Source of the DNA: an uncultured Actinomycetota bacterium
GTDB taxonomy: Bacteria; Actinomycetota; Actinomycetes; Propionibacteriales; Propionibacteriaceae
Assembly: GCA_963730505.1 (NCBI GenBank)
Contig: CAVSSB010000031.1
Location: 26,120-90,119 of the forward strand
Direction: 5' to 3'
Length of the DNA: 64,000 bases
The position numbers and the translations under genes are program-made. A model generated the notes under the pieces. That model did no database searches. It worked only from the letters and a program-made list of their open reading frames with translations, and had not been told where the DNA came from. Below are positions 53,089-64,000 of the stretch, piece after piece (the stretch's first letter is position 1; each line of letters opens with the position of its first letter).

Positions 53089-53286
53089 GTGAGCACTCCT
53101 GTTATCGAAGATTCCCACTTGAACGCCTCAGATCGTTGCGATCGGTGTGGCGCGCAAGCCTACGTACGAGTCACCATGGCCAGCGGCTTCGACCTTCTCT
53201 TCTGCTCACATCACAGCAAGGAGCACGCTGACAAGCTCAAGCAAATAGCGCTGACGATCCACGATGAGACACAGCGCATCGACTAG
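53089..53286 (+). CDS. Small Zn-binding conserved protein (DUF7455-like)
   Basis: DRCDRCGAQAYV...LLFCSHH; GGGAGG SD upstream of GTG 53089; C-terminal part of track ORF 52267..53286. Confidence 0.85.
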   Translation: MSTPVIEDSHLNASDRCDRCGAQAYVRVTMASGFDLLFCSHHSKEHADKLKQIALTIHDETQRID

Positions 53287-53304
53287 ACCCCTGAGACGCC
53301 TCAG

Positions 53305-53338
53305 CCGGCCCCAGCCAATTCACCATGGTTGGGGCCGG
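53305..53338. terminator. Hairpin between the small Zn protein gene and the original sigA 3' end
   Basis: CCGGCCCCAGCCA / TGGTTGGGGCCGG 13-bp stem with one G-U pair. Confidence 0.65.
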
Positions 53339-53377
53339 TCTGCGTCTGCAATGCGAGCTTGAGCTACCTGAGGCGCT

Positions 53378-53395
53378 AGTCCAGATAGTCCCGCA
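53378..53395. repeat. att core direct repeat, left junction (displaced native sigA 3' end)
   Basis: AGTCCAGATAGTCCCGCA identical to 63684-63701; minus strand reads LRDYLD then TAG. Confidence 0.93.
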
Positions 53396-53539
53396 TTAGG
53401 GACGACCCAACGCTATGCATCTGAGCGTGTTTCGCGACAGGTTTGCGAGCGCTGTGGGGCGAAATATTCCCGACTGAGTCGGGCGGTCCCGGTTCGCGTT
53501 AGCGGCGCTCCCCGGGACCTCGATGCCCCAGGAGGCACC

Positions 53540-53782
53540 GTGTCCCCATCCTCCCCTATCGTGCTCGCCAGCGGGCAGCTCACCCGTTCCGGCGACCAAC
53601 TGATCATCGAGCTAGTCCAGCCCGATTCGATGCCCGCGGCGGTCCGCGTGGTTTGGCCGGTGAAACCCTCCGTCACCGCACCCACACCTAAAGCGCTCGC
53701 GGCGTTGGCGGCGGCGATGGTGCGTTGCCTGGCGGAGGCTCAGACGGAACTCGCCGCGATTAAGGCGGGCCGACGACTGTGA
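53540..53782 (+). CDS. Hypothetical small protein
   Basis: 80 aa; GGAGG SD 4 nt before GTG. Confidence 0.6.
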   Translation: MSPSSPIVLASGQLTRSGDQLIIELVQPDSMPAAVRVVWPVKPSVTAPTPKALAALAAAMVRCLAEAQTELAAIKAGRRL

Positions 53783-53818
53783 ACTGCTCGGGTGAAGATG
53801 ACCGCCCGGACCGCCCAC

Positions 53819-53968
53819 CTACCCGTTAAGGGGAAACTGCCCAGTCTCAAGATGTGATCTGATGAGCCCGCACCGTTTGCACGTCCATACCGTTTCGTGC
53901 TTCTCGGCATCCCAGCCGTTGTGCCACTGATGTCGACGGAACAGGCAGCGCAATTTTTGAGGCAGCAT
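53819..53968 (-). CDS. 49-aa Cys/His Zn-binding microprotein (DUF1660-like), not in ORF track
   Basis: My translation: MLPQKLRCLFRRHQWHNGWDAEKHETVWTCKRCGLIRSHLETGQFPLNG; paralog of 54121..54270. Confidence 0.7.
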   Translation of the reverse strand: MLPQKLRCLFRRHQWHNGWDAEKHETVWTCKRCGLIRSHLETGQFPLNG

Positions 53969-54120
53969 CCGAACACTTCCCAGTCTCGATCACAGTAGCG
54001 AGAAGTGACCTGGCTGTATACGTTCCCCTGACCGCTCACTCGTTTCTGGCTCTTGCTGGCTAAGGAGCCGCTCGCTCCGCCGTCCCGGCCCGCTCGCGGC
54101 TCCCAAGAGGTCGAGTTGGC

Positions 54121-54270
54121 CTAGTAGCTCCCCGGGCCCGCCCCGTAGTCGGTCAGGGTGTACTTCTCCCGATAGGCGCCGCAGCGCGTGCAGAGCTGGT
54201 ACCTCTGGCCCTCGTCGTTGTGGTACGTGTGCCAAACGTGCAGATGAAGCAGGCACCTGAACGGCTTCAT
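54121..54270 (-). CDS. 49-aa Cys/His Zn-binding microprotein (DUF1660-like)
   Basis: MKPFRCLLHLHVWHTYHNDEGQRYQLCTRCGAYREKYTLTDYGAGPGSY; C-x4-H-x-W...CxxC. Confidence 0.7.
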   Translation of the reverse strand: MKPFRCLLHLHVWHTYHNDEGQRYQLCTRCGAYREKYTLTDYGAGPGSY

Positions 54271-54533
54271 CTCCGCAGTCTGTCGGAGACCCCAGCTAAC
54301 AACTCCATCGGGTGCGGACCGACCGCAGGTATTCCAGGACTTGCGCCGCCTCCCCCTGGTCGGCCCGCCCTTTATCAAGCTACGGGTAGCCGGTGAGAGC
54401 CTTCCACGTACACCGCGCAAACATTCCACAGCCTGCAGTGCCGTAGTGTCCGGGTGCGTGCGACCCATCTGGGTGACGCTGTTCGTAAGATCCGGGCTCT
54501 TCCTTCCTGGCGTGCTAAGGCGATCCCGGAGGG

Positions 54534-54683
54534 TCATTCCCGCAGTCGGAATTCGTGCCGCTCTCCGGCGGTCCCCACCACGGATGACGATCCTCGCACC
54601 AATACTCCCGTGAACATGCCTACGACGATGAAGAAGCCGACGACCGCCAGAAGAGCGAACACGACGAGGGCGGGGTTAGCCAT
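54534..54683 (-). CDS. 49-aa single-TM microprotein, not in ORF track
   Basis: MANPALVVFALLAVVGFFIVVGMFTGVLVRGSSSVVGTAGERHEFRLRE; GGAG upstream. Confidence 0.55.
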   Translation of the reverse strand: MANPALVVFALLAVVGFFIVVGMFTGVLVRGSSSVVGTAGERHEFRLRE

Positions 54684-54720
54684 ACGCGGAGCTCCGTGGT
54701 CACGTCGGCACCAGACCTAT

Positions 54721-54831
54721 CTAGTCCCGCCATCCGATCAGGTACCAGTTGGCAACGAGCATCCCGAAGAAGAAGAAGGCGATCCCGATGGTCTCGACCA
54801 CCGTCAAGGCGATCAGCTTCGCATACGTCAC
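54721..54831 (-). CDS. 36-aa single-TM microprotein, not in ORF track
   Basis: GTG start: MTYAKLIALTVVETIGIAFFFFGMLVANWYLIGWRD. Confidence 0.5.
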   Translation of the reverse strand: MTYAKLIALTVVETIGIAFFFFGMLVANWYLIGWRD

Positions 54832-54835
54832 GGCG

Positions 54836-54946
54836 TCACCAGTCCATTACCGAGACGTAGTAGGTGAAGGCGTGATAGCCGAGAATGAGCCCGAGCGGGA
54901 TCGAGACGATCTGCGTCAGTGCCAAGGCGATGCGCTTCGCGGTCAT
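54836..54946 (-). CDS. 36-aa single-TM microprotein, not in ORF track
   Basis: MTAKRIALALTQIVSIPLGLILGYHAFTYYVSVMDW; 4 nt upstream of the next 36-aa ORF. Confidence 0.5.
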   Translation of the reverse strand: MTAKRIALALTQIVSIPLGLILGYHAFTYYVSVMDW

Positions 54947-55135
54947 GCCGTCGAATCATAGGGGACATACGTCGCAGTCACTGGTGTGACAGGGAGTCTG
55001 TAAAACTCTCACGTCAGGGGTCGTAGTGAGCGGTGGGCCACGCCATCGAGACAAGACTGATAGGTCAAAAAGCTCAGCGAATGACATATCTAGACGTACA
55101 GACCAGCGCCTGACGAACGGCTGTGCGCAGCCAAG

Positions 55136-55654
55136 CTAGCTCAGGGCGTCGCAGAGAGCCTGAACCGTTCCGTCCGCGCCAACATCGAAGCGTCCGTGGT
55201 ACTCCTCGGAGACGAGTTCCCCTATCGCAGGGTCGAAGACGAGTCGCCAAAGCCCGATGGCCTTCTCACCGCCCTTGATCTTCAAATGGATGCCGGTGCC
55301 GAAGATGCTGATCGTCCCGTCCTCGTTCTCGACGAACCGGTCCAGGCCCACGTCCGCCGTCGTGATGGTCGCCGTCGGACTAGTAAGGGTGGACCGGAAA
55401 CTCGGGTGAGCGGTGACCCGTTTCACGGAGCCGTCCGGGTTGAAGAACACGGTCTCCCGGTAGTGCCCAGCGATGCGTGCAGTCACCGGAAACCCGCAAG
55501 CCTCGCTCAAGAACTCGTCCTCGACCGTGACGTCCGCGTCGAACACCTCAGAGACCACCCGCTCAGGCGGTACGGCCATGGCAGGCGAAGCAGTCGAAGC
55601 AGTCGCCAGCCCAACTGCCAGTGCAAGAGTCGCTGCCGCGATGATTCGAATCAT
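55136..55654 (-). CDS. Secreted beta-rich hypothetical protein with a Cys pair
   Basis: Signal peptide MIRIIAAATLALAVGLATASTASPAMA; LSEACGFPV...LCDAL. Confidence 0.8.
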   Translation of the reverse strand: MIRIIAAATLALAVGLATASTASPAMAVPPERVVSEVFDADVTVEDEFLSEACGFPVTARIAGHYRETVFFNPDGSVKRVTAHPSFRSTLTSPTATITTADVGLDRFVENEDGTISIFGTGIHLKIKGGEKAIGLWRLVFDPAIGELVSEEYHGRFDVGADGTVQALCDALS

Positions 55655-55846
55655 CCTGCCCCCGATCGTGTTGCTAGCCCCCGGCCAGTCTGAGCAACCT
55701 TATCCCCGGGGACTGCGGCGGCGTGCAGAACGGCCAAATGTGGTAGCAGGTCCTCTAGATCGATCCCCTCGGCGGCCTTCGATTCCCGACCCCGGCGTGA
55801 GAAAGGAAACGAAAAGCCGCCGGGCGGGTGACATTGACGCCCAGAC

Positions 55847-56203
55847 CTAACCCGGCCGCCTGCCGAGGAACCGGACACCCAAAATTTGCCCCCGCTGCTG
55901 GTCAACCGTGACAATCGCACGCAGATCTGGATCGCTAGTCAACCGCTGATAATCAGCAGCGGCCAACCGAAACCTGACCCAGTTACCGGCCACCGCTTCA
56001 CCGCGGCCAATGTCGCGCCCCGCAGCACGCGCGTACACAGTCGGTGCGCCGTAACGGCCGTCATCCTGCATCAGCGCCTGATGACCCTTCCGCCAAAACC
56101 TCGCGCCGACACCAGACACCTTCACCAACACCGACCCCGTGGCGGGGTCATGAGTTGTCTCGACATCACAGGTGGCAAGCGGCGCCGGAAGAGTCACACT
56201 CAC
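55847..56203 (-). CDS. Hypothetical protein
   Basis: 118 aa; GTGA overlap with the upstream gene's stop. Confidence 0.6.
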   Translation of the reverse strand: MSVTLPAPLATCDVETTHDPATGSVLVKVSGVGARFWRKGHQALMQDDGRYGAPTVYARAAGRDIGRGEAVAGNWVRFRLAAADYQRLTSDPDLRAIVTVDQQRGQILGVRFLGRRPG

Positions 56204-56660
56204 TCCTCATCCGGCGTCCCGGAGATGGGGTGGAAGACCGTCCCCTGGTGGCTCAACGAATCCTCCAACACGCTCGTTCGTTTCGGCCGGGCGGCACGGT
56301 CAGCCGCCGCCCACGCCTCCGCAGCCGACACGCCGACTGGAAGCTCGTGCCAGGGCTGACCGCGGTACAACGCGGCCCTAAACCGCCGATCCTCCTCGAC
56401 GGCCTTCTGCTCCTGCCGTGCAGCCACTTCTTGAGCCCGTAGCTGATTCTCACGGTGCTCAGTGAACAGCTGCCTCGCGGCGTCGCGTGAGATCGCGTCG
56501 CGGCCGATGTCGTCGACAACAACCGGAATGTTCCGGCCATTGAGGTAGCCGACGCTGACCTCAGGCAAATCCAATGCGAGCTGCTGATCGGAACAGGGCC
56601 GTCGGCCGGGGCGGCGTCCTGGTGGGGCGGCCCGATGTCGGTCTTGGTGCTGCCGAACAT
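56200..56660 (-). pseudogene. Element hypothetical protein with an apparent 1-nt deletion near 56582
   Basis: Frame 1 MFGSTK...GPVPIS joins frame 2 QLALDLPEVSVGYL...VVDDIGRDAISRDAARQLF if AGCAG is read as AGCCAG. Confidence 0.5.
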
Positions 56661-56693
56661 ATGAATTCATCTCCAATTCAAATTAGGAACTGA

Positions 56694-56817
56694 TGGCGAG
56701 ACGATGGCAGGCGCGGCTGAGGACGCCGGGCAGAAAGGGACCCGGCTGACCGCCCTTCGGTCCCGAGTTGATTGAGGCCGAGTTGGCACTCGGGCGGCGT
56801 TGACCGTCGTCTCGCCA
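56694..56817. ncRNA. Candidate structured RNA (multibranch)
   Basis: 14-bp closing stem 56694-56707/56804-56817 enclosing three hairpins (56725-56746, 56748-56762, 56778-56793); folded by eye. Confidence 0.4.
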
Positions 56818-56820
56818 AGC

Positions 56821-57003
56821 TCATGTGGTCCGCTGTTCCGGCCCGGTGTGTCTGGTCAAGGCATTGAGCAGCCGTACGCGTTCGGGGTCCGGTAGCTCAT
56901 CCACTCGTTCGGCGAGTTCCCTCGCCAAACGCACCGGCCTTTGAGCACCCCACCGCGACCCCGACAGCTGCCGCGCAGCAACACTCACCGCACTGTCGCT
57001 CAT
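56821..57003 (-). CDS. 60-aa hypothetical protein
   Basis: MSDSAVSVAARQLSGSRWGAQRPVRLARELAERVDELP...; ATG 57003 within track ORF. Confidence 0.55.
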   Translation of the reverse strand: MSDSAVSVAARQLSGSRWGAQRPVRLARELAERVDELPDPERVRLLNALTRHTGPEQRTT

Positions 57004-57086
57004 GCGGACAACGATACCGCAAACATGTTGCGCCCCACCTACGCCAGACACAACAACCCGCCGCCAAATCGCCGTAAATTGAGCGT

Positions 57087-57481
57087 ATGGCGATGCATCG
57101 CAAGCGGCCGATGATGGACAGCCCCCCGCCGGCCGAGCTACTCAGGTTCAGACCGGACAACTGGACAGGGCCAGCCCACGAAACCACCTGGCACCCCGCC
57201 TACGAACGGTGGTGCGCAGCCCGGCAAGCCTGGAGAACCAACACCCCGGCTGGCTGGGTGATCCCGTGGAACAACTACACGACGAACACCAGACCCGGCA
57301 CGAACTCATGCAACGCTGGCCGCTCGAACCGATGGGCCCCGTCAAGATCACCAACTACATCGTCCAAGAAGGCGTCGTCGACCCGGTAACCGGTCTGATC
57401 CGGGGCCGCGTAGCTGGCGAGGACCACATCCCGGCCGGTGGAATCGGCATCCGCCACTGCGACTGGCTACCAGGTATCTAA
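57087..57481 (+). pseudogene. Paralog of 57478..57726 with an apparent 1-nt deletion at about 57233
   Basis: MAMHRKRP...PAELLRFRPDNW...ERWCAARQAW joins ENQHPGWLG if TGGAG is read as TGGGAG; the repaired protein aligns with the neighbour. Confidence 0.65.
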
Positions 57482-57726
57482 CAACCCGCGGCCTCCCACT
57501 CAGAACGCCGACGCGCCTCAAACAGACGATGCTGCACCCTGAGCACATCCAACGCCGTGCCAATCTCCGAACCCGGATGCTGCTTCACAAACTTCATGCG
57601 AGCCCGACCCCAGAGTTCACACGACTGCCACCATTCCCCAGCCGGCCACTCACTCGGATCGAAGATCATCAGCTCAGGCGGAGGCGCCACCGTCAACGGC
57701 GGACGACGATGCACAGCCACTGTCAC
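57478..57726 (-). CDS. Trp-rich hypothetical protein directly downstream of terS
   Basis: VAVHRRPP...PPELMIFDPSEW...ELWGRARMKFVKQHPG; GTGA overlap with the terS stop. Confidence 0.7.
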   Translation of the reverse strand: MTVAVHRRPPLTVAPPPELMIFDPSEWPAGEWWQSCELWGRARMKFVKQHPGSEIGTALDVLRVQHRLFEARRRSEWEAAGC

Positions 57727-58142
57727 CAACCCCCTTCGCTGGCCGCCCGGAGTTCGGCAAGCTTGCCGTTGCTCTCACCGTCGCCCTTGTTCCGCCAACG
57801 CCCGGCGGCGGCCTTCTGGGCATGCCTGCTGCTAGCGCGAGTACCGACTTCCTCGGTGTCGTCAGGAAGATTCAGAGCCGTCGTGAGGCGCTCCAACAGC
57901 AGACGATGGGCACGAACCTCACTGAGCAGCGGATGCGGCCGTATCTGGCCTGTGCTCCCGACGGTGGTCAACTCAGGCAAGGCCCGAACAGCACGCTCCA
58001 GCCGATCCAACTCATCGGCCGTACGGGCGGCTTGACCGAGCATCTCCACCTCAGCCGCAGTCAACACATACTTGTCGACCACAGACAGCCACAGCCGCTT
58101 ACCCGACGCTCTCAGACCACTCGGCGGCCTTTGGTCGGGCAT
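57723..58142 (-). CDS. terS: Phage terminase small subunit (P27-like, actinophage type)
   Basis: PPSGL..SGKRLW..V...Y.L...E..ML..AA...D.L..L...V.GSTGQ..PHPLL.EVR..R..L..L..ALNLPD...S..AQKAA..RW. Confidence 0.8.
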   Translation of the reverse strand: MPDQRPPSGLRASGKRLWLSVVDKYVLTAAEVEMLGQAARTADELDRLERAVRALPELTTVGSTGQIRPHPLLSEVRAHRLLLERLTTALNLPDDTEEVGTRASSRHAQKAAAGRWRNKGDGESNGKLAELRAASEGGW

Positions 58143-58335
58143 AGAGTCATTCTCTCAGGCCCCCGCCCGGAAAACGACCTTCGGGCATGTCGGGGACGGA
58201 GACGAAGTGACTCTAGTCCCGCGATGATTTCACCTCAAAGAAACCGACCCCACTCACCATCTCGCCGCGGTGTTCACTGTCCGATCCCACACTGGTGGCC
58301 AGTCGGTCACGGTTTGCTCCTTGCGGCACGCTGGA

Positions 58336-58357
58336 GGGGCGCCTGGAACGGCGCCCC
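58336..58357 (-). terminator. GC hairpin after 58370..58753
   Basis: GGGGCGCC-TGGAAC-GGCGCCCC, 12 bp past the stop. Confidence 0.55.
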
Positions 58358-58369
58358 GGTGCTGTGCGG

Positions 58370-58753
58370 TCAGCTGTTTAGCCGCTTGCAAATCGAGTCG
58401 AGGTCAGTGACGTGTGGCTCATTGATCATGATGGTCTTACCGTTCGAGAGGTTGGTCTTCAGCTGCAGACCGGTGAACTCAACTGATCTGCCTGCGATGC
58501 TGGTGAGGACCGTACCGTCAGGTTCGACCCGTGTGATCTCGATCGTGGCAGTCTGGAACGGCACCTGGTTGGTGCCCTTGCTGAAGAAGCCGGCGATATT
58601 GGCCACCCGCAGGTCCTGCGGACCGACTGGTTTTTGGGGAGCAGTCAAGACCGTGATGGTACCGCTGATGGTGAATTCGACCCGACCCCCGCACCGATCG
58701 CTCAGAATCTTGCTTCGGAACGAGTCTGAGATGGGGATCCTTTCCCTTATCAT
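58370..58753 (-). CDS. Hypothetical protein, remote paralog of 55136..55654 without a signal peptide
   Basis: GAGGAGG SD; ILSDRCGGRV...EPDGTV...SICKRL. Confidence 0.75.
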   Translation of the reverse strand: MIRERIPISDSFRSKILSDRCGGRVEFTISGTITVLTAPQKPVGPQDLRVANIAGFFSKGTNQVPFQTATIEITRVEPDGTVLTSIAGRSVEFTGLQLKTNLSNGKTIMINEPHVTDLDSICKRLNS

Positions 58754-58947
58754 CCGTCCTCCTCACCCGATTTCGGCGCCTAGCCGGTGCGTCTGGACTC
58801 GACAGTACTCGGAAACCCGGGCGCCGGTCGGGCTAGGTGTGACTCGTGGAATAACACCGGTGAGGCGTCCGGGTGTGACTGTCATTAGCGGGCGGTCATG
58901 TCTTCGTTGCCTCTAGTTGATCTTGTTTGGCGCTCGGGACTACGCAA

Positions 58948-59104
58948 GGGGGTCTTATTAAGACCCCCAACTTGCGCATAGGTCTGGCCGCGCATAGCCC
59001 GCATAGGTCTGCGCATAGGTCTGTTGAGCGTAGCGCGAACAGCCCGCATAGGGTCCGCACAGCTATACGGCCGAAAAGGCCGCGCATAGGTCTCCGCATA
59101 GGTC
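58948..59104. repeat. Candidate replication origin: palindrome plus iterons
   Basis: GGGGGTCTTA-T-TAAGACCCCC at 58948-58968, then seven CGCATAG heptamers at 58975, 58991, 59000, 59012, 59045, 59083, 59095, abutting the primase-helicase stop. Confidence 0.8.
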
Positions 59105-60812
59105 ATTTCGCCGCCCAAATCTTGGGTTTGTTGGTGGCTGCGTCGCCCGGTTGGGTGATCTTCAGAAAGCCTTGGCCGGTGAGTTTGTCGAGCCTTCTGC
59201 GGGCCTTGTCCTTTTCGTTTGGGGTGGGCTTGTCGGTTTCGAATATCGCCATTGCAGCGGCGGCCGCGGTTAGCCCACCAGGCTGCTTGGCGAGGAGGAC
59301 AAGGTCGACGCTGCGCCAGATTTCGGATTTGCCGGTGTCGTGGTCGTGGATGATTTTGAGCGGGCCAACTTCGGAGGCTGGCTGTTTGATGTGGTGGAAC
59401 GACACGATCGCATCACCGGGTTTGCCGTTGAGCAGAACCACGGAGCCTGCTCCGGATGTGATCCAGGTCGAGCCGTAGACGCCGTCGATGGTTGGATGTT
59501 CGGCTTCGACGCGGGTTAACGCTTTGCGGAGGTGGTGGAGCTCCAGGACCTGGACGCCAGCCGTGCAGGCGGTTTGGCGGGCCCGGTTGTAGCTGGCTCC
59601 CACTTCATCGTCAGAGAGTCCGACGGCGGCGTCTTTGAGTGAGTCGACTATCACCGCGTCGGCACACGCCTGCTTGCAGAGTTCCAGCAGCAGGGATGGG
59701 TATTTGGCGAGGTCACCGGGCGGCGGTCCTTGCCAGACGGTCAGATGCTCGTGGAGTTGGGCGCGGTGTTCTTCGCCTACCATGCGGCGGAATGATCGGG
59801 CGGCTTGTCGGGGCCTGTCCATCGCCAAGTACAGGACCCGCATCCCTGAAGTGATCGGGAAGCCGAGCAGGCTGGAGTAGCCGGGGATTCTCATCCAGCC
59901 GAGCGCTATCTGTTGGGCCAACGTAGTTTTGCCTAGGCCTTGTAGCGCGGCGATGATGAGGGCTTCGCCGTCGGCCCATAGGACCTGGTCCCCTTCGCCC
60001 CACAGCGCCTTGGGTTCGGGATCTGTGTCGAGGATGAAGTTGTCGCCGGGCGTGAACTGGAAACCTGTCTTGGCGTCTTGGTCGGGTTCTGGTTCGTCCT
60101 CTCCTGGCTGAGGCGGCGCAACTGAGAGTAGACCGTCGGGCCCGTGTCCAGCTGCGATGTGGTCGGCAGCGTCTTTGCCAACTTTGGCCAGTTTGAACTG
60201 CAGGCTTTTAGCTTTGAGTTTGAGCGCGGTTCGAACCTGCTGCGCCCATTGTTTGCCGCCGTTGTCACGGTCGGGTATGGCGATAATGTCGGCGCCGGTC
60301 AGTGGTGACACATCCACTTTATGGAAGTTGGCGGCGCCCATTGGTGCGGTGGTGGCCACCAGCCCGATGGACTCGAGCGCGTGAACGTCTTTCTCGCCTT
60401 CTACCAGGTAGACGGTCTGCCCAGCTGCGACAGCCTCGGTTATTTTCGGGAGCCGGTAGAGGATCGGTTGGGATTGGGTGTCGCCGCTTTGCCAGAACTT
60501 CTTTTCTGGGCTGCGGTGTGCTGTGCGCAGGATTTGGCCTGGTGCGACTTCGTAGACGTAGGTGACGCCGCGGGGTTCGTCGTACAGGTCACGGCTGGCC
60601 ATGCCGAGCGCGTCGAGCACAGCCTCGATTGGGCAGCCGGTGTGGCAGTGCGCCAACACCTGGCCTTCGATGCCCGTGATCGACAACGACGGATGCCGGT
60701 CATCGTGGGCTGGACATTGGGCCTTCGCCTGGTTCGGCCTGCCGTTGGTTTTGACGACCTTGCCGAGGTCGTGGAGCCGGTCTAGTAGCCGGTCGTAGGC
60801 CGTGGCGGTCAT
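59103..60812 (-). CDS. Primase-helicase (Zn finger, TOPRIM, RepA/AAA_25 SF4 helicase)
   Basis: CPAHDDRHPSL..HCHTGC; VYLVEGEKD...PDRD; Walker A QGLGKTT; VIVDSL; HHLRK; YGSTW; GGAGG SD before ATG 60812. Confidence 0.92.
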   Translation of the reverse strand: MTATAYDRLLDRLHDLGKVVKTNGRPNQAKAQCPAHDDRHPSLSITGIEGQVLAHCHTGCPIEAVLDALGMASRDLYDEPRGVTYVYEVAPGQILRTAHRSPEKKFWQSGDTQSQPILYRLPKITEAVAAGQTVYLVEGEKDVHALESIGLVATTAPMGAANFHKVDVSPLTGADIIAIPDRDNGGKQWAQQVRTALKLKAKSLQFKLAKVGKDAADHIAAGHGPDGLLSVAPPQPGEDEPEPDQDAKTGFQFTPGDNFILDTDPEPKALWGEGDQVLWADGEALIIAALQGLGKTTLAQQIALGWMRIPGYSSLLGFPITSGMRVLYLAMDRPRQAARSFRRMVGEEHRAQLHEHLTVWQGPPPGDLAKYPSLLLELCKQACADAVIVDSLKDAAVGLSDDEVGASYNRARQTACTAGVQVLELHHLRKALTRVEAEHPTIDGVYGSTWITSGAGSVVLLNGKPGDAIVSFHHIKQPASEVGPLKIIHDHDTGKSEIWRSVDLVLLAKQPGGLTAAAAAMAIFETDKPTPNEKDKARRRLDKLTGQGFLKITQPGDAATNKPKIWAAK

Positions 60813-61123
60813 AACGTCACCTCCGGACCAAGATCGATCGGGAGGTAGCCAGGCAGCAGTGCCAGGCAGCCGGGCTCGTGCGGCACCGTGACCTCGATTG
60901 CAAGGCCGGCACGAGCTGCTCGGCGTCGCGCGGCCCGGTTCGGCAAGATCAGCTTGGCGCCGCATGGGCAGGTACCCCCGCCGTTGACGATGGCTCGGCG
61001 GCTCAACCCTTCTTTGATCGCTTCGGGTGCATTGTCGGGGATCTCGGTTTCCAAGATCACGAGACGTTCGCCTTGCAGGGATGTTTCTCTTGGCCGGTAC
61101 CGGAACTCGATCGGCTCACTCAT
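60809..61123 (-). CDS. Hypothetical protein with a CPCG...HxxGC metal site
   Basis: 104 aa; 4-nt overlap with the primase start. Confidence 0.7.
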   Translation of the reverse strand: MSEPIEFRYRPRETSLQGERLVILETEIPDNAPEAIKEGLSRRAIVNGGGTCPCGAKLILPNRAARRRAARAGLAIEVTVPHEPGCLALLPGYLPIDLGPEVTL

Positions 61124-61193
61124 CGCGACCACCGCCGAGTGGGCGGTAAACTGAGCGCAGAATCCATCGCCCGCAATCGCATGGTTTCTTGAT

Positions 61194-61220
61194 GAGCCGG
61201 CCCCCCACCAGGGCCGGTTC
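61194..61220. terminator. Hairpin in the early operon spacer
   Basis: GAGCCGGCCC / GGGCCGGTTC stem. Confidence 0.4.
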
Positions 61221-61225
61221 GCTTT

Positions 61226-61522
61226 TCATGCGGCATCCGGGGCACCGCCTGAATGCAGCTCAGCCTCAGCAGACTCGGCGACGACGGTCAACTCTTTGAT
61301 CTTGCGACGAGCCTGGGCGGACTTATGCGCAAGCCGCAGAAAGTGCGCCTTGCGCAGGTGCTCGGCGCGGACGGGGTCGCCGTTTGCCTGCGCCAAAAAC
61401 CTTGCGGCGAGAGCCGCGCGGGCGGGCGCGGTTCTAGCGGTTCGATCCTCGGTGACAGCCCAAGAGGCATGCGCCCCGAGCTTGCCGATCAGTCTCCGCT
61501 CAGCGGGGGTGGAAGCAGTCAT
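61226..61522 (-). CDS. Small basic protein typical of actinobacterial integrative elements (AHxSWA...DRTARTAPAR)
   Basis: AHASWAVTEDRTARTAPARAA...RKAHFLRLAHKSAQARR; first gene of the replication operon. Confidence 0.75.
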   Translation of the reverse strand: MTASTPAERRLIGKLGAHASWAVTEDRTARTAPARAALAARFLAQANGDPVRAEHLRKAHFLRLAHKSAQARRKIKELTVVAESAEAELHSGGAPDAA

Positions 61523-61669
61523 TTCGCATCACTCCATCGGCCCACCCTGCTGGGGGTTTGCCGTGGAGCTACTTTGCGACGGGCTTAGCTGCCGGACCCG
61601 TGCCCGCGGTCGCCGCGGGCCTGCGTTGTGCCATCAATTATGTCATATCGCTGGCGTATCGTCTGTGCG

Positions 61670-62020
61670 ATGATCATTGTCGAGTGTCACCGGTGTCACC
61701 GTCCGGTAGCACGCCTCGCCCTCCAGGACGGGCGCGCCGAGTTCCTCGGGACGACCGTGGCCGAGAACGGAGATCCGGGAGGTGCCCTCACAGCCGACGT
61801 CGGGCAGCGCATCGGGCGGTGGGCGGCGACTGAGGTGATTTCCACCGACGCGACAGTCGCGCCAGGTTCCGCGATGTCGACAGGGCGGAAAACGATCGGC
61901 CATGCCAGTGGACACTGCAACGAGCGTCGAACGGTCACGCTAGAGGCCCGGACGGCCGCCTACCACCGCGCGATAGCTGCGGGACGAAAGCGGATATCAC
62001 TCCTGGACTTGAGGGCCTGA
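61670..62020 (+). CDS. Hypothetical protein with N-terminal CxxC, divergent from the replication operon
   Basis: MIIVECHRCHRPVARL...GHC; 116 aa from ATG 61670; ends 7 nt from the integrase stop. Confidence 0.55.
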   Translation: MIIVECHRCHRPVARLALQDGRAEFLGTTVAENGDPGGALTADVGQRIGRWAATEVISTDATVAPGSAMSTGRKTIGHASGHCNERRTVTLEARTAAYHRAIAAGRKRISLLDLRA

Positions 62021-62027
62021 AACAGTT

Positions 62028-62939
62028 CTACAGTTCCCCCAGGTTGAGCCGCTGGGCCTCTTCGGCGGCCCTGGCGGATGCCTGAGCCTTGGTGTAGCGC
62101 AGGAGCATGTCGGGCCGCGTCCAGCCGGCCACGGCCATCAGGCCACCCTCGGAGCCGCCCTTCGCGAGCCAGCGGTGGGCCGCGGTGTGCCGCAGGCGAT
62201 GCGGGTGGAAACCCTGTATGCCGGCCATCTCGGCACGCATCGCCAATGTCTTGTGCAGTGCGTCGTAGGAGAAGTGTTTGCCCCGGTCCCCCAGCCACAA
62301 CGCCGGATCGTCTTTGAGCCGATGCGACCGGCGGGATCGCAGATAGCGGTCAATGGCAGCGGCAACCTCCACCGCCAACGGGACCACCCGGCCTCTGCCG
62401 CCTTTGCCACGGCGGATGATCGCTGTCGGCGGATCAGTACGCAGGTTCAGGTCCTGGACTTGCAGCGCAACCACCTCACCGGCCCGAGCACCGGATGTGA
62501 ACATCAGCCGCACCAATGCCTCGTCGCGCTTGTCGCGTAGATCAGGGCCCCGGCATGCCTTTAGCAGTGCCCGTAGCTGGTCGTCGGTCAGCGGCTCAAC
62601 CACCGGCTTATCCAGTCTGGGTGAGCGAAGCCCGAGCAGTGGATCGGCTACCTGTTCGCCTTCCTCGGTGAGCCAGGCCGAGAAGCGTCGCACCGCAAGG
62701 TGGCGAGATACTGCGGTTGCGGGTTTGGCGCCGGAGGTCAGCAGCCCATCGACGAACTCTCGGAGCTGCCGCCGCTCCAAAACAGCGGGTTTCTCGTTGG
62801 CGGCGCACCAGGTGAGGTAGGCGCGTATCCCGTCGCCGTAGCTCTTGACCGTTTGGGGTGACTTCCGCTCCGCCCGCAAGTGCAGCTCCCAGGAGCCCAG
62901 CAGCTCGGCGAGGTCCGGCGCGGCGTTACGGCTGGCCAT
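62028..62939 (-). CDS. int: Tyrosine recombinase / integrase (XerC/D-sized, 303 aa)
   Basis: SAM-like domain SPQTVKSY; catalytic R (TSGARAGE), K (GKGG), HRLRH, GW, RY; GAGGGG SD before ATG 62939. Confidence 0.95.
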   Translation of the reverse strand: MASRNAAPDLAELLGSWELHLRAERKSPQTVKSYGDGIRAYLTWCAANEKPAVLERRQLREFVDGLLTSGAKPATAVSRHLAVRRFSAWLTEEGEQVADPLLGLRSPRLDKPVVEPLTDDQLRALLKACRGPDLRDKRDEALVRLMFTSGARAGEVVALQVQDLNLRTDPPTAIIRRGKGGRGRVVPLAVEVAAAIDRYLRSRRSHRLKDDPALWLGDRGKHFSYDALHKTLAMRAEMAGIQGFHPHRLRHTAAHRWLAKGGSEGGLMAVAGWTRPDMLLRYTKAQASARAAEEAQRLNLGEL

Positions 62940-62961
62940 CGACCCCTCTTGACGTAACAAC

Positions 62962-63496
62962 TCAGGGTGCAGTCGCGGTCTGACCGAGGGCCAGGGCAAC
63001 GGCCTCCGGTGGCGTCATGACCACGATGCCCACGTCCGACCGCAGCCGCTCCTGCGTCCGCTTCTTGATCAGGTGCTTGTCCCGGGTGACGAACACGTCG
63101 TGTCCGGCCATCACGTGCGCGGTGAGGTGGTGGACATCGATCATCCGCCTGCCGGCGTCTTCCGGTTTCTTGCCTTCCAGGACAATCGCCGCGATCTCCT
63201 CGTCCAAGCGCTGCGTCTCGTCGTCTGCGAACACGTCACCGTTGAAAAATTCGTAGTCGTCGCCGAGCCTGAGCGAACCTGGCACCTTTTACGATCGGCG
63301 TCTGGCTCAGATAGTCCAGGTTGTCCCGGCGCTGGTCCGGAGAGGCTTTGCGTTGGTCCGCCTCGAAACCGGAGGTTCTGGCGATGGCAATCTTGCCCGC
63401 CGCCGCCAGCTCGACCAGCCGCTCAACGGACGGGCTATCAGGCTCTCCGTTGGCGGCAGCGATCACGCTGTTCGTGTCTAAGGTGAATGTCACCAT
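62962..63496 (-). pseudogene. Stand-alone PIN-like domain gene split by a 1-nt insertion in the A4 run at 63287-63290
   Basis: N-half FTLDTNSV; C-half MIDVHHL.AH..AGHDVFVTRD; one A fewer gives a continuous 177-aa protein. Confidence 0.7.
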
Positions 63497-63681
63497 GGTT
63501 CCGGCGTCCTTCTCCGACGTTGTCTCCGCAGATCCCAGACGCCGTTACCCGGCCCCCCGATGCTGCGCTGTGTCGCGGCCTAAACAATAGCGCAATATCT
63601 TGGACTAGAACGCTGTGCAATGCTACGTTTGGCGTGTCAGGCCCCATTTCACGCGTAAATCACGGTGAAACAGCTAGATGC

Positions 63682-64000
63682 TCAGTCCAGATAGTCCCGC
63701 AACACCTGCGACCGGGATGGGTGCCGCAGCTTGCTCATGGTCTTGGACTCAATCTGGCGGATGCGCTCCCGGGTGACCCCATACACCTTGCCGATCTCAT
63801 CCAGGGTCTTGGGCTGGCCGTCGGTCAATCCGAAGCGCATCGACACCACTCCGGCTTCGCGCTCACTGAGAGTGTCCAATACGTCGTGTAACTGCTCCTG
63901 CAAAAGGGTGAAGCTCACCGCATCTGCCGGAACGACGGCCTCCGAATCCTCGATCAAATCTCCGAACTCAGAGTCACCGTCTTCGCCGAGCGGTGTATGC
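63682..64000 (-). CDS. sigA: Principal RNA polymerase sigma factor, 3' end (partial, runs off window)
   Basis: Region 4: [62 protein letters not shown]. Confidence 0.95.
63684..63701. repeat. att core direct repeat, sigA-side junction
   Basis: AGTCCAGATAGTCCCGCA; followed on the minus strand by an element-supplied TGA. Confidence 0.93.

Follow-up and report, generated by a model that had tools for sequence, protein, structure and literature searches.

The 64,000-nucleotide stretch of DNA analysed here (hereafter the window), taken from contig CAVSSB010000031.1 of an uncultured Actinomycetota bacterium, carries between positions 53378 and 63701 an integrated island that is probably a helper-dependent phage satellite. 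It would be of the kind represented by PICIs (phage-inducible chromosomal islands), and it carries no genes for building a virion. The features that it has in common with PICIs are an integrase and direct repeats at a defined insertion site, a replicase of its own with adjacent iterons, a small terminase subunit (TerS), the lack of virion and lysis genes, and a size of 10,306 bp. In what follows, loci compared with the window carry L numbers and soil sequencing runs carry X numbers.

Site-specific insertion at the 3′ end of a sigma factor gene

The ends of the island are set by an 18-mer, AGTCCAGATAGTCCCGCA, of which the window holds exactly two copies, at 53378-53395 and 63684-63701, with start positions 10,306 bp apart. 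In a shuffle control, 100 shuffled sequences yielded no match to it, also when two mismatches were tolerated. The two copies are the cores of the attachment sites:

53378..53395, no strand assigned: attL core, a displaced copy of the 3′ end of the sigma gene that keeps the original TAG stop
63684..63701, no strand assigned: attR core, the last 18 nt of the sigma-70 gene (...LRDYLD), with a TGA stop whose final two bases are island-derived

An earlier reading of this DNA, made from its letters and open reading frames (ORFs) and referred to below as the sequence-only reading, had proposed exact 18-bp ends at this spacing, and the proposal is borne out by an empty-site contig as well as by the two exact copies. 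That contig, found in Logan for soil run X14, matches positions 53149-53377 without a difference and then resumes at 63684, omitting exactly 10,306 bp with the 18 letters shared at the joint, which makes it a precise empty site. A contig from soil run X1 has the empty-site junction running from 53395 into the sequence that follows 63701, and the same run also holds the island; soil run X21 contains a more diverged strain that is likewise without it. Copies of the island in four independent assemblies are at least 99.9% identical and occupy the same site. The island is a discrete insertion, placed by site-specific recombination in the terminal 18 nt of a SigA/HrdB-like sigma gene, and soil populations contain occupied as well as empty sites.

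Insertion exchanges the stop codon of the sigma gene (53374-53377 versus 63680-63683), which is TAG at the empty site and at attL and TGA at attR. Because the island supplies the new stop and the reading frame is preserved, the essential sigma gene remains intact. In sister assemblies, the full-length gene encodes 476-512 aa with sigma regions 1.2, 2, 3 and 4 (r1_2, r2, r3 and r4; L005 and L006) and adjoins the genes for a DUF7455 protein and topoisomerase IV; by actinobacterial synteny, we take it to be the principal sigma factor of the SigA/HrdB type. Since neither a tRNA nor any Rfam family is found anywhere in the window, the attachment site is not a tRNA.

Three further observations concern the locus and its host. 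A GC-rich hairpin (CCGGCCCCAGCC...GGTTGGGGCCGG, about 53305-53340), with the convergent DUF7455 gene on one side and the sigma/att site on the other, is likely to be a bidirectional terminator of the empty locus; a promoter and terminator scan gave nothing above chance. Contigs from soil run X22 contain two odd joints, one leading from 56411 to 62056 (5,644 bp skipped, with 32 unmatched letters between) and one from 60598 back to 53701, which may represent rearranged or chimeric island relatives or assembly artefacts. The ParE-like protein encoded next to the island is 85% identical to proteins of Friedmanniella and of Propionibacteriaceae metagenome-assembled genomes (MAGs), and 81% identical to a protein of Microlunatus panaciterrae. 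These identities place the host among the uncultured Propionibacteriaceae of soil, in agreement with the Propionibacteriales host supposed in the sequence-only reading.

A small terminase gene without virion genes

The terminase gene of the island is the following:

57723..58142, minus strand: small terminase TerS of the P27/HK97 type, 139 aa, matching PHROG 1496 (‘terminase small subunit’) at 3.1e-18

Its assignment as a P27/HK97-type TerS is supported by this PHROG match, by Pfam at the level of the family and by fold search. Terminase_4 is matched by 38 of the 39 close TerS homologues, with a best value of 1.3e-6. When the AlphaFold model (pLDDT 75) was compared with BFVD using Foldseek, nearly all of the top ~35 matches were small terminases, with E values down to 3e-4 and probability 1.0; in the PDB fold search, the top five matches were all the HK97 small terminase, at values that are not significant (E 0.36-0.58). 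The sequence-only reading had described a lone terS and had named profile and structure searches as the check on it. The assignment withstands both, and no gene for a large terminase (TerL) accompanies it.

TerS has 344 detectable homologues, nearly all soil-metagenomic and many of them 65-81% identical. In the cultured-phage collection, its relatives are confined to the EPIP satellites and one large mycobacteriophage, and the TerS of the EPIPs (11 kb, Mycolicibacterium aichiense) is 43% identical over 96 aa. On the IMG/VR phage contig L014, the gene for a 45%-identical TerS is followed directly by a 587-aa ORF, a putative TerL gene, and by a portal gene of the SPP1 type.

The search for other phage or transfer functions covered all island ORFs of at least 85 aa in all frames with Pfam and PHROGs, and the main gene candidates with NCBIfam and PADLOC. 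No ORF of this size matched a capsid, portal, TerL, tail, holin/lysin, FtsK/TraB or relaxase family, no credible PADLOC match to a defence gene was obtained, and the largest island gene left unassigned encodes just 172 aa.

Integration and replication modules

The right half of the island carries the genes for integration and replication, which are the following:

62028..62999 (called start 62939, 303 aa), minus strand: tyrosine integrase of XerC/D-like size, Pfam Phage_integrase 6.5e-25 and phrog_1 1.3e-42
61226..61522, minus strand: 98-aa partner of the integrase, phrog_2842 at 3.4e-20
60809..61132 (also called 60809-61123), minus strand: Cys-containing protein of 104-107 aa, no family match
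59103..60812, minus strand: primase-helicase (replicase) with a CHC2-like zinc ribbon, Toprim and an AAA_25 (RepA/DnaB-like) helicase
58974..59104, minus strand: putative replication origin with about seven iterons (GAC)CTATGCG(C/G) in the same orientation, beginning at the replicase stop codon
62962..63496, minus strand: two overlapping ORFs of 86 and 107 aa between attR and the integrase gene, called in L005-L008
61628..62020, plus strand: ORF of 126-130 aa on the opposite strand between the integrase gene and the 98-aa gene, called in L006-L008

The integrase gene is separated from the right repeat by about 700 bp that contain two small ORFs, and its product is 44% identical to gp53, the integrase of the Cluster E mycobacteriophage Teaspoon. 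The 98-aa protein is 62% identical to gp54 of Teaspoon, encoded directly after that phage's integrase. The two genes form a phage-type integration cassette, in which the 98-aa protein is a candidate recombination directionality or accessory factor. The family phrog_2842 carries no assigned function, and the two-gene cassette (61226-62999 here, 2448-3707 in L109) is shared with Cluster E mycobacteriophages.

The gene at 60809 overlaps that of the primase-helicase by 4 nt (ATGA), through which the two are translationally coupled. The primase-helicase matches AAA_25 (1.8e-13), a PHROG helicase family (2.8e-106), Toprim primase PHROGs and TIGR01391, while its zinc ribbon was read from the sequence. 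Its homologues number more than 2,500 and come from actinobacterial phages and mobile elements. As the closest of these (about 62% identical) belong to one full phage and to one 11-kb contig that bears an FtsK_SpoIIIE-like gene and no TerS, the module is promiscuous and uninformative on lifestyle.

A pattern search of the putative origin (58974-59104) found three exact iterons, two with one mismatch and one with two mismatches; a seventh, diverged copy near 59043 was read directly from the sequence. Matches with at most one mismatch occur only twice outside the array in the 64 kb, and a hairpin at 58948-58968 follows it. Iterons at the 3′ end of the replicase gene, or directly after it, are also found in the relatives L104 and L108. 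A lone iteron-like copy, GCGCATAAGTC, lies inverted inside the 98-aa gene (61320-61330, minus strand, one mismatch), about 2.2 kb from the array, and may be a chance occurrence. The L005 copy of the island, otherwise 99.98-100% identical, has a 1,336-bp insertion with Transposase_mut (IS256-family) fragments inside the array (L005:7770-9105; about 59037 in the window), and this insertion sequence (IS) probably disables the origin in that strain. The sequence-only reading was thus sound on the integrase near one end, on the leftward small genes (61226-61522 and 60809-61123) that lead into the primase-helicase, and on the clustering of iterons in one orientation.

Two positions in this half are less clear. 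The 86-aa and 107-aa ORFs overlap by 50 nt, give a weak match to phrog_6010 and may be one frameshifted gene. A PIN-toxin identity, suggested by a PIN-like appearance to the eye, was dropped after the joined sequence gave no Pfam or PADLOC match. The ORF at 61628..62020, which may or may not be coding, has a weak codon signal and no family match; by position, no other ORF is a candidate for a divergent regulator.

A TerS arm conserved among relatives with different modules

The left half of the island, from the small gene that precedes terS to attL, contains TerS and the following genes:

58370..58753, minus strand: 127-aa protein in a lower-GC stretch, no family match; the site of a WhiB-like gene in several relatives
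57478..57729, minus strand: g83, a helical protein of about 80 aa, rich in Trp, whose gene follows terS in most relatives
57087..57481, plus strand: convergent g83 paralogue of about 130 aa (N-terminal part paralogous), split by a frameshift
56821-57051, minus strand: ORF of about 58-76 aa, conserved in relatives, no function assigned
56200-56676, minus strand: g158, conserved in relatives, no function assigned
55847-56203, minus strand: g118, conserved in relatives, no function assigned
55136..55654, minus strand: 172-aa protein with an N-terminal signal-peptide-like segment, not conserved in relatives
54121..54537, minus strand: 138-aa Cys/His-rich protein, conserved in L038
53540..53782, plus strand: g80p, an 80-aa inward-facing terminal gene at the integrase-distal end

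Relatives of the island were found with a TerS alignment scan; a single-sequence pattern scan of genome contigs for the primase-helicase confirmed none. About 14 non-redundant relatives in soil Actinomycetota combine an integrase, a replicase and TerS without structural genes. Their recurring gene order runs from the integrase through (HTH_17), the replicase, (WhiB-like) and TerS to one or two genes of the g83 family, g158/g118 and, further on, g80p. The integrase may be a tyrosine or a serine recombinase, and the replicase is of one of four types (Toprim-helicase, Prim-Pol, PolA-like or polymerase/primase). Integrase and replicase modules are freely swapped among these elements; the TerS arm is what they keep. 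In a PHROG census of the 104 ORFs of at least 220 aa around TerS at 14 non-redundant loci, integrases, primases and polymerases were found, and none of the 25 families that occurred most often was structural; another ten large ORFs of unknown function were likewise non-structural. The island and the relatives that bear TerS also lack FtsK/TraB, relaxase and partition genes.

Apart from TerS, the genes of the arm have no family assignment. The g83 family numbers just 45 representative clusters among 1.84 billion proteins, and its structure model (pLDDT 89) has no fold match in BFVD; with no Pfam or PDB match and none in phage records, g83 is an orphan family. An intact homologue of its convergent paralogue, in L102, matches 57087-57260 and 57224-57478 in two different frames at 64-75% identity. 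The split (near 57224-57260) is seen in all four assemblies and may be either a true frameshift or a long-read homopolymer error. Homologues of the genes between 55847 and 57051 stand beside terS in L032, L038, L072, L095, L103 and L107, at 30-53% identity, and homologues of g80p, at 40-70% identity, occur in L010, L032, L035, L038 and L103, relatives with different integrases. Because such homologues recur beside terS, part of what was supposed to be cargo is conserved family core. The sequence-only reading had regarded these genes as unannotated accessory cargo; most are indeed without a family match, and the 172-aa protein is probably true cargo, but the label does not suit the conserved part.

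The relatives also bear on the extent and layout of the element. In L032 and L103, it ends at g80p, beside the chromosomal ruvX gene, and in L032 it spans about 10.5 kb; convincing flanking repeats were found in none of L104, L012, L108 and L032. In L101, L104 and L030, the integrase gene and a co-directional gene of about 190 aa are divergent from the HTH_17 gene and the replicase gene, which is the classical layout. One relative, L012, belongs to a cultured actinomycete, Planomonospora sp. ID82291 (NZ_JABTEX010000005.1:241683-262009), and has genes for a tyrosine integrase, a Toprim protein of 931 aa and a TerS that shares 46% identity with that of the window, after which comes a 1,195-aa ORF without a Pfam match. 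An abundant relative (L097, L098, L099 and L100) has its TerS (P0126) on at least 61 contigs. Beyond its TerS arm lie genes for a glyoxal-oxidase-like protein of 1,051 aa that has FG-GAP repeats, for a zinc alcohol dehydrogenase and for a DUF3500 protein, possibly outside the element, and one variant has a RelA_SpoT-domain gene upstream of terS.

From these comparisons, we regard as evenly balanced the broader proposition that the window island belongs to a widespread family of phage satellites without capsids, not described until now, in Actinomycetota of soil (Propionibacteriaceae, the cultured Planomonospora and various MAGs), whose arm of TerS, g83, g158, g118 and g80p would be a new helper-hijacking or interference module without counterpart in known phages or satellites.

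Comparison with known satellites and integrative elements

The closest parallel in design is provided by the Staphylococcus aureus pathogenicity islands (SaPIs), such as SaPI1 and SaPIbov1. Like them, the island is an element of the ~10-15 kb class inserted between short direct repeats at the 3′ end of a specific gene, with the integrase at one end, its own primase/replicase, an iteron origin directly 3′ of the replicase gene, its own TerS, no TerL, capsid, tail or lysis genes, and accessory genes at the far end. Unlike the SaPIs, it is a satellite by prediction, and its modules have no sequence homology to theirs. Its TerS belongs to the P27/HK97 type, it resides in a high-GC actinobacterium, there are no cpmA/B or ppi homologues and no recognised divergent regulators of the Stl/Str kind, and the integrase gene is co-directional with the replication genes. 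The island appears to resemble functionally the TerS-only design of the SaPI type while being non-homologous to it. The gene order that the sequence-only reading had likened to PICIs holds for integrase, replicase with iterons and TerS, whereas no divergent regulator layout is recognised in the window copy.

SatelliteFinder's definition of a PICI has five core components, namely integrase, regulator, primase-replicase, capsid-morphogenesis gene and TerS, and excludes elements with genes for tail, holin or portal/connector proteins (PMC10085698). Three of the five are recognised in the island, among them TerS, by which Gram-positive PICIs redirect packaging, and no match was obtained to a capsid-morphogenesis (size-redirection) gene, a component that Gram-positive PICIs may do without; under the definitions of that study (PMC10085698), the island would be at most ‘Type C’. 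Putative PICIs, most of them phiRv1/2-like, have already been reported with this tool from Mycobacterium and Rhodococcus (PMC10085698), and a survey by the Hatfull laboratory took a capsid gene as the defining mark of its candidate PICIs in Mycobacterium (PMC10654092). Like phiRv1, phiRv2 and the other Mycobacterium candidates, the island is a small integrative element of an actinobacterium, has a primase/replicase and a small terminase related to theirs, and is predicted to be a satellite. Those elements, however, are described as carrying a major capsid protein or were delimited by it, with a protease as well in phiRv1/2 (PMC10085698, PMC10654092), whereas neither the island nor its relatives have a capsid gene and the island has no protease gene; on this point, the distinction drawn in the sequence-only reading is upheld.

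Other small actinobacterial elements differ in the same or in other respects. The EPIPs (JSForest1/2 and Maddie1, from Mycolicibacterium aichiense) are experimentally isolated satellites (PMC12822802) of about 11 kb that share with the island an actinobacterial host and a related TerS. They encode a serine integrase, a scaffold, a major capsid protein, a head-tail adaptor and stopper and a tape-measure protein, with no annotated replicase, whereas the island has a tyrosine integrase, its own replicase and putative origin and no structural genes. The Streptomyces satellites MulchRoom, MiniFlayer and Ando are likewise small helper-dependent elements of Actinomycetota, some with an integrase, which encode capsid proteins and were isolated as particles (PMC10690885, PMC13587820); no homology between them and the island was detected. 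All the characterised actinobacterial satellites that we found (phiRv1/2-like elements, EPIPs, MulchRoom, MiniFlayer and Ando) encode capsids. Actinomycete integrative and conjugative elements (AICEs) of the pSAM2 type resemble the island in size (~9-24 kb), in their tyrosine or serine integrase, in their autonomous replication module and in their actinobacterial hosts, but they have no TerS and require an FtsK/SpoIIIE-type Tra protein, which the island lacks, as the sequence-only reading had noted. With the Cluster E mycobacteriophages (Teaspoon gp53-gp54, phage 244 gp54), the island shares an integrase and next small gene in the same order, yet these are complete temperate phages of 70-75 kb, and the integration cassette is all that is common.

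The satellite model and its alternatives

Altogether, these findings suggest a model in which infection by, or induction of, a helper siphovirus would derepress the island through some regulator. The integrase, perhaps together with its 98-aa partner, would then excise the island as a circle, and the primase-helicase would fire at the iterons and amplify it. Island TerS would bind a pac or cos site on the island and recruit the helper large terminase, so that island DNA would fill helper capsids, while g83 and the other conserved genes could serve in packaging redirection or in interference with the helper.

Several observations weigh against this model. The window TerS itself falls below the Pfam Terminase_4 cut-off (E 0.05, 14.4 bits). 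The integrase gene runs with the replication genes instead of showing the classical divergence of int-stl and str-xis, and no repressor, antirepressor target, excisionase or helix-turn-helix regulator is recognised in the window copy, nor any capsid-size redirection gene in the island. No helper phage was recognised, and TerS proteins of true phage contigs reach at most 45% identity to that of the island. Logan contigs of four island-holding runs contain no attP junction, which at a depth of 2-6x is uninformative; the depth of the island does not exceed that of its flanks, and no related contig is circular, as judged by terminal overlaps, a result equally uninformative at the available depth. 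Finally, the IS within the iterons of one natural copy could mean that the lineage is decaying.

The island might instead be an integrative, self-replicating element that is never packaged, i.e., an integrated plasmid or a mobilizable element spread by a conjugative helper or by transformation, in which the TerS-like protein would be a DNA-binding regulator or a partition factor. An integrase, a replicase and iterons suffice for such an element, and the closest homologue of the primase-helicase (62%) does sit on the 11-kb contig with an FtsK_SpoIIIE-like gene and without TerS. We hold this to be unlikely: the island and its TerS-bearing relatives are devoid of FtsK/TraB, relaxase and partition genes, the fold and profile matches of TerS are specific to small terminases, and no gene of the family is better conserved than that of TerS, which keeps 65-81% identity among elements whose integrases and replicases are unrelated, a degree of conservation that fits selection by a shared phage partner. 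A decayed prophage that retains just its integration, replication and terS genes would account for the phage-type integrase cassette and primase-helicase, for the ORFs that look frameshifted and for the IS in the origin of the L005 copy. Such a remnant would hardly be expected to have precise boundaries with an exact empty site and an intact integrase, replicase and TerS, and the apparent frameshifts may be long-read assembly errors. The compact architecture free of structural genes is moreover found in ~14 diverged relatives; as it recurs with different integrase and replicase modules, independent decay would not account for it. The sequence-only reading would have yielded had the homologues been fragments of full prophages; they are not, and a prophage remnant seems very improbable to us.

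It is also conceivable that the island acts chiefly against phages, with TerS and g83 as decoys that sabotage the packaging of an infecting phage and with little transfer of the island itself. The SaPI Ppi and TerS proteins interfere with helper packaging, such interference is common among satellites, and the conserved orphan genes beside terS have no phage counterpart. No PADLOC defence model was matched, however, and the island's own replicase and origin, together with its wide spread with swapped integrases, argue that the element moves. We consider a mainly anti-phage role quite improbable, and it overlaps with the satellite model without excluding it.

Significance for Actinomycetota and their phages

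In the literature searched, of which coverage was incomplete, no description was found of the TerS-arm family or of integration at the 3′ end of a sigma gene. The sequence-only reading had supposed a satellite family possibly undescribed for this lineage; PICI-like elements had already been predicted in Actinobacteria (PMC10085698), which suggests that what is new is a capsid-less, lineage-specific family. If the satellite interpretation is correct, this would be the first lineage of SaPI-style, TerS-only satellites in the phylum. Marker-based satellite finders would score such elements as incomplete. Should the element of Planomonospora sp. ID82291 prove to be a family member, it would offer a model in a cultured host, and the family would be a source of candidate proteins for terminase redirection or helper interference. 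The island also exemplifies a mobile element that targets the 3′ end of an essential principal sigma gene without disrupting that gene. Satellites are now being found widely, and nothing in the island runs against expectation; in soil Actinomycetota, satellites are little known, and they shape phage-host dynamics and gene flow.

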